Of a stretch of DNA of 64,000 nucleotides, positions 41,737 through 42,105 are shown one piece after another. Each line of letters starts with the position of its first letter. Position 1 is the stretch's first letter. The notes under the pieces were generated by a model. It worked only from the letters and a program-made list of their open reading frames with translations. It was not told where the DNA came from and made no database searches. This DNA comes from Eledone cirrhosa. Lineage: Eukaryota. The translations under genes were made by a program, and so were the position numbers. The stretch is taken from assembly GCA_964016885.1 (NCBI GenBank), contig OZ024761.1, positions 15,376,001 through 15,440,000 on the forward strand. Direction: 5' to 3'.

Positions 41737-42105
41737 AACATGGGGAGAAGAATACTGCATGGTTGCACATGGATTACATATTATAAAATTAGTCCCTCAT
41801 CAGTGATTTGCCAACCATCATTGGTATTTCATCGCATTAAAAATCAGATACCTCAGGTTGGTGCGAGCAATAACTAAAATAAGCTATTGGGACAAGTGAA
41901 ACGCGTAAAGCGAGTGAGACAAGTAAACAACAAAAGGAAAGCAAACCGAAGGTTGGGAAAACAGCAAGCAATCATGATAGTTATCCGATCAGCATATAGA
42001 AATAAGAAGAAAGCACAAACGGGGGACAGTCACTTCTTCAGTTGTCTGCTGGAGGTCACGGACATTTCAACGCATTAAAGACAATATGTCTAACTCCAGT
42101 GCGTC
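41735..42105 (-). mobile_element. Diverged second copy of the 23.4-24.0 kb element
   Basis: Shared AACCATGCAG/CCATGTGCAACC tail, ribozyme motif and CTTGTCCCAA block; TA-flanked; right boundary approximate. Confidence 0.7.
41796..41866 (-). ncRNA. Candidate non-circularly permuted hammerhead ribozyme with K-turn (copy 2)
   Basis: Reverse complement reads TCGCA-CCAACC-TGA-GGTAT-C|TGATTT-TTAA-TGCGAT-GAAA-TACC-AATGAT-GGTTGG-C-AAATCA-CTGATGA-G, with a compensatory change in stem I relative to copy 1. Confidence 0.75.

Follow-up and report, generated by a model that had tools for sequence, protein, structure and literature searches.

A split-stem hammerhead-type motif in non-coding tandem repeats of the Eledone cirrhosa genome and its probable descent from Naiad-type Penelope-like elements

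Introduction

The window, a stretch of 64,000 nucleotides of the Eledone cirrhosa genome (assembly GCA_964016885.1, contig OZ024761.1, positions 15,376,001 to 15,440,000), contains two diverged copies of a 71-base motif that a sequence-only reading took for a permuted hammerhead. The question raised by this locus is whether the differences between such copies reflect a conserved self-cutting RNA fold, and what kind of element carries the motif. Positions below are those of the window, and minus-strand parts are given from 5′ to 3′.

Architecture of the motif and its relatives in the window

Copy 2 of the motif, which represents family B, occupies 41866–41796 of the minus strand. It consists of the stem II leader (41866–41862), one strand of an interaction helix (41861–41856), the 3′ strand of stem III (41852–41848), H17 (C41847, 3′ of which the cut is predicted), the 3′ strand of stem I (41846–41841) followed by a TTAA linker, the 3′ strand of stem II (41836–41831), GAAA (41830–41827), the 5′ strand of stem III (41826–41823), the partner strand of the interaction helix (41816–41811), the 5′ strand of stem I (41809–41804), the CUGAUGA core (41803–41797), and nucleotide 10.1 (G41796). 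The hammerhead core set of CUGAnGA, GAAA, A15-U16, and H17, as defined in the accessible text of PMC7151607, is complete in copy 2 and kept in the family majorities. The core blocks follow each other in the non-circular order S (cut site), G (GAAA), and C (CUGAnGA). In the model, stem II is split: the 5′ leader forms it together with, in most families, a single pair contributed by the nucleotide that follows the core. Block C is thus interrupted, only one post-core base being able to pair.

Directly 5′ of the leader lies a conserved 7-bp hairpin (41868..41889), which was recognized by covariation and is present in the nested fold. A likely closing helix (41792..41893), recognized by pairing across families, joins 41893–41890 to the tail at 41795–41792; because these pre-hairpin bases pair with the post-core tail, the RNA ends probably leave via the fourth helix. 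In the best nested fold of copy 2, the hairpin, the interaction helix, and stem III were held, and the leader mispaired with the CUGAUGAG core. The energy of this fold, calculated with a tool that handles structures free of pseudoknots, was no better than that of shuffles (z = −0.8).

Copy 1, of family A, lies on the plus strand at 23851–23921 (H17 = A23870, core 23914–23920). The two copies differ in 8 of 71 aligned columns and are 85% identical over 241 bases. Most of the differences first read from them were confirmed in the sequence: the cleavage triplet AUA of copy 1 is AUC in copy 2; pair 10.1-11.1 changes from A-U to G-U; the leader pairing of copy 2 is TCGCA/TGCGA; the outermost (seventh) stem I pair is lost in copy 2; and CTGATGA, GAAA, and GGTAT/ATACC are invariant in both. 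The predicted cut after minus-strand C41847 likewise fits the sequence. Two further claims did not hold. (i) The double change of a stem I pair from C-G to U-A, which had been offered as evidence, is mostly an artefact, the C of copy 1 being nearly private: at the fifth pair of this stem, 27 of the 30 loci nearest copy 1 have U·G, 2 (copy 1 and L047) have C-G, and 1 has U-A, so the fixed subfamily difference is one-sided (U·G to U-A). (ii) The upstream flanks, described as more diverged, differ in 12 of 71 columns compared with 8 of 71 ribozyme columns (Fisher p = 0.47); copy 2 has its end at 41996. Thus, the substitutions of the two-copy comparison stand as read, while their evidential value does not, the comparison being non-significant and one double change near-private.

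The sequence-only reading had missed a third, fully covaried copy, the upstream hairpin, and the closing helix, as well as the link to Naiads and the setting in tandem retroelements. The third motif, of family C, was found by the descriptor scan at 42104–42034 of the minus strand (H17 = A42085, GAAA from 42068, core CUGAAGA at 42041–42035), 170 bases upstream of copy 2; all of its helices are rewritten, and its spacing is the same as that of copy 2. The element that carries it (about 42105–41997) is truncated at its leader, where (TA)n begins. The family C and family B copies abut with few TA-like bases between them (42124–41698, minus strand), as if the B copy had been inserted into the TA-like tail of the C copy.

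Covariation of the helices across families

Pairs were counted on structure-blind MAFFT alignments of real copies picked near the family majority, from which families H and I were kept out because of indels. With 9 sequences, 17 of 29 pairs were changed on both sides and 97.6% of the cells were paired; with 11 sequences, the corresponding values were 20 of 33 and 92.8%. None of 500 shuffles matched either covariation count or reached the observed pairing, although these shuffle counts overstate independence because the families are related, and slid-register controls were 23–47% paired. The number of further pair types showed no excess over shuffles (94 and 154 of 500).

Changes on both sides were found in 4 of the 6 pairs of stem I and in 2 of the 4 of stem III. 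They also occurred in 2 of the 5 pairs of the leader helix of stem II (89–96% paired), in 5 of the 6 of the interaction helix (95–100% paired), and in 4 of the 7 of the upstream hairpin (96% of cells paired). The alternative stem II leader ATTGC was rejected, its bases belonging to the covarying hairpin. Pair 10.1-11.1 occurs as A-U, G-U, G-C, and U-A and is paired in 9 of 11 sequences; it is mismatched in D, H, and part of C, and in H the leader can pair with 11.1 instead. For a test that took in 8 families, the distant H and I among them, only stems I and III were used, whose register is fixed by the core; the registers of stem II and the interaction helix were floated per family, with other registers in A, H, and I. 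In this test, 39 of 40 and 32 of 32 cells of stems I and III, respectively, were paired (71 of 72). In one fixed register, 77% of the cells of the closing helix were paired; its pairing within families scored 32.5, compared with 23.2 ± 2.8 for swapped families, and was reached by 32 of 20,000 shuffles (6 of 8 families parsed). The permuted-hammerhead model and its predicted cut site therefore fit all tests run, with cross-family covariation in all helices of the modeled fold.

Decay of inserted copies

Uncompensated stem changes at the background rate in additional copies had been named as the observation that would speak against the model, and in single copies exactly this is seen. Among 85 copies not selected for ribozyme likeness, with family G left out, private changes were found at 131 of 3,116 ribozyme sites and 143 of 3,613 flank sites (p = 0.62), and 68 of the 98 changed pairs in these copies were broken. 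Because inserted, inactive retrocopies are expected to decay, such neutral decay is no refutation, and we judge the original expectation to have been mis-set. Selection is visible only between source lineages, not among inserted copies.

Carrier repeats and anatomy of the insertions

The monomers of families A and B are non-coding, have lengths of ~516 and ~530 bases, respectively, and are inserted in (TA)n. Copy 2 is carried by a 5′-truncated family B monomer (41733..41996, minus strand), the 3′ end of which runs into (TA)n at 41732–41698; copy 1 is carried by an element of slightly more than one monomer (about 23410–23979, plus strand). Tandem partners were found in 6 of 8 families, with periods mostly of 515–753 bases, and inverted partners in 7 of 8. 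The monomers are 66–68% pyrimidine, and there are mostly one to two units per insertion. As many as 26 of 30 B loci and 23 of 30 A loci share one 3′ end point, in an internal TA stretch that lies ~110 bases beyond the predicted cut, and the 5′ ends of A and B insertions are scattered, indicating 5′ truncation. Among 74 insertions, which are loci chosen for an intact central ribozyme, the upstream cut site was read through in 9, and in none did the 5′ end lie at an upstream cut site; a search with the 3′ part alone, aimed at truncations exactly at the cut, yielded no candidate loci. Folded as circles, the monomers gained nothing over shuffles in B (−80.6 vs −78.3 ± 6.1) and slightly in A (−77.4 vs −68.7 ± 4.3), and this weak self-pairing gives a stable circle no extra support.

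An ORF linked to these families was absent at all loci examined. ORFs beside the repeats were rejected as partners, being other elements nested in the same TA runs, and tblastx matches near the repeats were rejected as belonging to other inserted repeats. The window also holds classic type I hammerhead motifs with a TATATA palindromic stem III loop (8180–8235, plus; 48529–48580, plus; 51385–51330, minus), and many more of them exist at other loci, so that classic and permuted forms coexist in the genome. Long near-perfect inverted repeats, typical of tail-to-tail Penelope-like insertions, lie beside TA runs at 7921–8286, 48277–48632, 46809–46947, and 50021–50240. A 40-base minisatellite (30062–32036; 49 copies, 95% matches) reaches an assembly gap.

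Families and copy number

About 10 related repeat families in this genome carry the motif. An architecture-specific scan gave 7 matches in 790 kb of unselected genome (79 stretches of 10 kb), 3 in the window, and 0 in reversed sequence; a later version gave 185 matches in 1.65 Mb of mostly selected loci and again 0 in reversed sequence. Families D, E, G, H, and I came from the unselected stretches and further searches, and J and K from flanks. Family J (L290:1183-1297, plus strand), in which stem III of A/B/G is joined to stem I of C/D, is a possible recombinant. The unselected 790 kb hold 10 motif copies, 7 found by the descriptor and 3 by nhmmer, corresponding to ~38,000 copies in the 3.0-Gb genome, with a 95% range of 18,000–70,000 that is optimistic because copies cluster. 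For family B, 2,007 candidates were obtained at first look, and the 40 that were scored were all 99–100% identical. Identity within families B and E is 99%; family B is a young family, and family A is its sister.

In the public run X1, which is possibly from the same organism and thus no independent sample, the summed contig depth peaked at 614,000 over the ribozyme core, compared with 1,700–3,700 over the upstream part of the monomer (41935–41986), in line with many families sharing the ribozyme part. Runs X4 and X5 yielded 1 and 5 short low-depth contigs, too few to use. A search of metagenome contigs with the core pattern gave one chance match inside a long ORF, without the stems; the pattern was absent from viral contigs, and a blastn search of phages gave no match.

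Probable non-circular hammerheads in published Naiad elements

In the accessible text of PMC8557442, Craig et al. 2021 describe Naiads as having (TA)n targets and tandem and inverted insertion, without a canonical hammerhead, and report eight "half-core" cases with GAAA at a distance on either side. We read 16 of the 54 Naiad consensus 3′ ends of that paper by eye, and all 5 half-core consensi among the ends seen parse as non-circular hammerheads. The split layout is seen in Naiad_Ovul, in the record before it (Obim by table order), and in Naiad_Esco. In Naiad_Ovul, stem II is GACAC/GTGTC, the helix CGGAT/ATCCG, stem III ATGGT/ACCAT, and stem I CTGCCC/GGGCAG, the hairpin loop is as in family B, and the 6-base linker is nearly so; stem II of Naiad_Esco has one mismatch. 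Nbra-2, Nbra-3, and the record before them (nematode) are clean type CSG, and Naiad_Smim is type SGC. In the record before Smim, the layout is that of SGC and the core reads UUGAAAA, and Dst-1, -2, and -3 are SGC-like with a ~300-base insert and less secure. No such motif was seen in 5 of the 16 ends (Omin, Adux, Skow-1, Tama, and the record before Tama, taken as Ebur by table order), 4 of which are listed as incomplete. The two published CSG hammerheads, which came from unsourced metagenomic DNA, may be of the nematode Naiad kind.

A literature search mostly confined to papers outside subscription found none that assigns a non-circular hammerhead to Naiads or to the genome of an animal; the accessible text of PMC13725137 only cites Eckert. 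The motif is likely the ribozyme that Naiads were reported to lack.

Naiad remnants in this genome

All Naiads found in this genome by motif and protein searches are old and broken, with open frames of 28–233 residues; the label "Naiad" means here that peptide motifs were read against published consensi, and Pfam named neither the remnant compared with it nor two other RT-like frames. In 11 of 30 remnants, the RT motif is followed downstream by a conserved S-G-C block in the same orientation, and non-circular order and Naiad frame are thereby linked in this genome. Among 8 aligned remnants, 35 of 40 cells of stem III and 50 of 56 of stem I were paired, compared with at most 11 of 40 and 24 of 56 in slid registers. 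The core of the block is UUGAnAA in 6 of these 8, a variant different from that of copy 2's family. A U3-A8 core swap can be active. In one remnant (L326:2805-2925, plus strand) and ten others, the stem I word is self-complementary, a hairpin separates stem I from GAAA, and a closing helix is possible; their block is perhaps a further stem II arrangement. The core motif of Naiad_Ovul had 0 matches in this genome, and a split-stem scan of the 30 remnant ends found no such ribozyme, only one family C insertion. No direct sequence link between the young families and the Naiads of this genome was found.

Proposed mechanism and alternative explanations

Taken together, these observations make it probable that copy 2 is a split-stem-II S-G-C hammerhead whose carrier, a non-coding tandem repeat inserted in TA, likely descends as a non-autonomous form from a Naiad-type Penelope-like element. 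The motif lies toward the 3′ end of this repeat, and its RNA is predicted to be multi-pseudoknotted and to cut itself after C41847. The parts of this reading differ in strength. That the motif has a conserved hammerhead-type fold is in our opinion highly probable; that it cleaves itself, as predicted from the model, is quite probable, and so is the Naiad ancestry of the repeats. In the proposed mechanism, the 5′ leader (11.2–11.6) and one pair from the base after CUGAUGA would build stem II, the closing helix at the joint of leader and tail would hold the 5′ and 3′ ends of the RNA, and the interaction helix and the TTAA linker would pull stems I and II together, as in type-SGC ribozymes. The RNA would then fold to the hammerhead core and cut after C41847, and cuts in successive monomers of tandem transcripts would free unit-length RNA. 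A Penelope-type reverse transcriptase would prime ~110 bases downstream of the cut, in the internal TA stretch; because reverse transcription would cross the cut site, its template would be a re-ligated circle or an uncut multimer. Selection would act on the source elements, not on inserted copies.

A possible, if less than probable, alternative keeps the ribozyme as described and assigns the present mobilization of the repeats to a canonical Penelope-like element with a C-terminal endonuclease, on which they would ride in a retrozyme-like manner, their likeness to Naiads reflecting old ancestry or module exchange; on fold and origin, it is compatible with the explanation preferred here. It accords with the presence, within TA runs of the genome, of GIY-YIG ends and long open frames of Penelope type, with the finding of broken Naiads only, and with the preprint 10.64898/2026.07.22.740005, the accessible part of which derives animal retrozymes from Penelope-type pLTRs. 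However, the canonical elements seen in this genome have hammerheads of the classic type I, no sequence connecting them with the repeats was found, and the Naiad searches scored the best candidates of one lineage, so that a young Naiad could be missed. Penelope-type frames or GIY-YIG ends in TA runs were seen at L124:1-435 (plus strand), L033, L050, L061, and L232, all candidates for the active mobilizer; the L124 element ends in a type I hammerhead-like motif.

We consider it unlikely that the fold, although truly hammerhead-derived, is chiefly a structure by which the reverse transcriptase recognizes the RNA, with family B or the whole split-stem group cleaving poorly or only with help from a dimer, a protein, or the enzyme of the element. 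The G·U at 10.1-11.1 in B and the mismatches there in other families, the mispairing of leader and core in the nested fold, and the absence of 5′ ends at the upstream cut site all suit this explanation, as do the slow type-SGC rates of 0.007–0.13 per minute given in the accessible text of PMC10085705. By contrast, all catalytic core letters and an NUH triplet are kept where the helices are rewritten, and a role in binding alone needs neither.

That the core words merely came together by chance in an AT-rich repeat without conserved structure is very improbable, for although CTGANGA is a frequent word (37 matches in the window), the two-copy comparison is non-significant, and an Rfam scan of the window gave no match at the gathering threshold, every helix covaries, the reversed controls gave 0 matches, and the layout recurs in published elements of other species, the covariation counts from sequence refuting such an arrangement in effect.

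Significance

Non-circular hammerheads, retrozymes, and Naiads are each known already; their joining in an animal genome is, as far as the literature covered shows, new. If the motif cleaves, it would (i) give non-circular hammerheads, until now almost only environmental sequence, a very-high-copy home in an animal genome; (ii) add an arrangement beyond the six orders thought possible; and (iii) overturn the published view of hammerhead-free Naiads (PMC8557442), which has been used to argue that these ribozymes may merely parasitize Penelope-like elements. The motif escapes both Rfam and the standard type I/II/III descriptors, so that comparable numbers may lie unnoticed in other genomes, and the ten natural families supply sequence variants of it. 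More broadly, we lean, with less assurance, toward the view that much of the Naiad clade has a non-circular hammerhead as its standard 3′ ribozyme (nematodes with CSG; a spider and an ostracod with SGC; in cephalopods a seventh, split-stem-II arrangement opened at the fourth helix), and that these hammerheads are active and drive a new kind of retrozyme with tens of thousands of pseudoknotted copies per animal genome.

Comparison with known hammerheads, retrozymes, and Naiads

According to the accessible text of Eckert et al. 2023 (PMC10085705), hammerhead blocks can be arranged in six orders, block C being assumed uninterruptible; no example of type SGC in a known genome is given there, the published SGCs coming from metatranscriptomes, and the four helices of type-SGC ribozymes were validated by mutation. 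Judged from its sequence, the split layout of stem II falls outside these six orders. From the oligos of that paper, read by eye, the strands of SGC-1 follow in the order S, stem I′, short linker, stem II′, GAAA, stem III, helix strand a, stem I, CUGAUGA, spare base, stem II, and helix strand b; copy 2 consists of these very strands, and they follow one another in this cyclic order. Like type SGC (HRIMA-1), the motif has the S-G-C order, an intact core, a short linker between stems I and II, and a helix tying these stems together; the SGC features of a joining helix and a 3–4-base linker are present as the interaction helix and TTAA. Unlike in type SGC, stem II and strand b lie at the 5′ end and interrupt block C, an extra upstream hairpin and a likely closing helix are present, and the carriers are high-copy animal genomic repeats. 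The split arrangement would work as SGC does, with the strand cycle opened at yet another point.

Metazoan non-LTR retrozymes, as far as described in the accessible texts of Cervera and de la Peña 2020 (PMC7229834) and the preprint of Li et al. 2026 (10.64898/2026.07.22.740005), are likewise non-coding tandem monomers with one hammerhead each and also share low GC and a position beside Penelope-like elements. Their hammerhead is of type I, in highly self-paired monomers of 150–450 bases, whereas the order here is non-circular and the monomers are longer and weakly paired; the families described here thus lack the type I hammerhead in a 150–450-base self-paired monomer by which retrozymes are recognized. 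With Naiads, as portrayed in the accessible text of PMC8557442, they share (TA)n targets, 5′ truncation, and tandem and inverted copies, and, by eye, the 3′ ribozyme layout of the three split-layout consensi. In contrast to Naiads, they are without an endonuclease-RT frame, have monomers of 515–753 bases, and were recently amplified.
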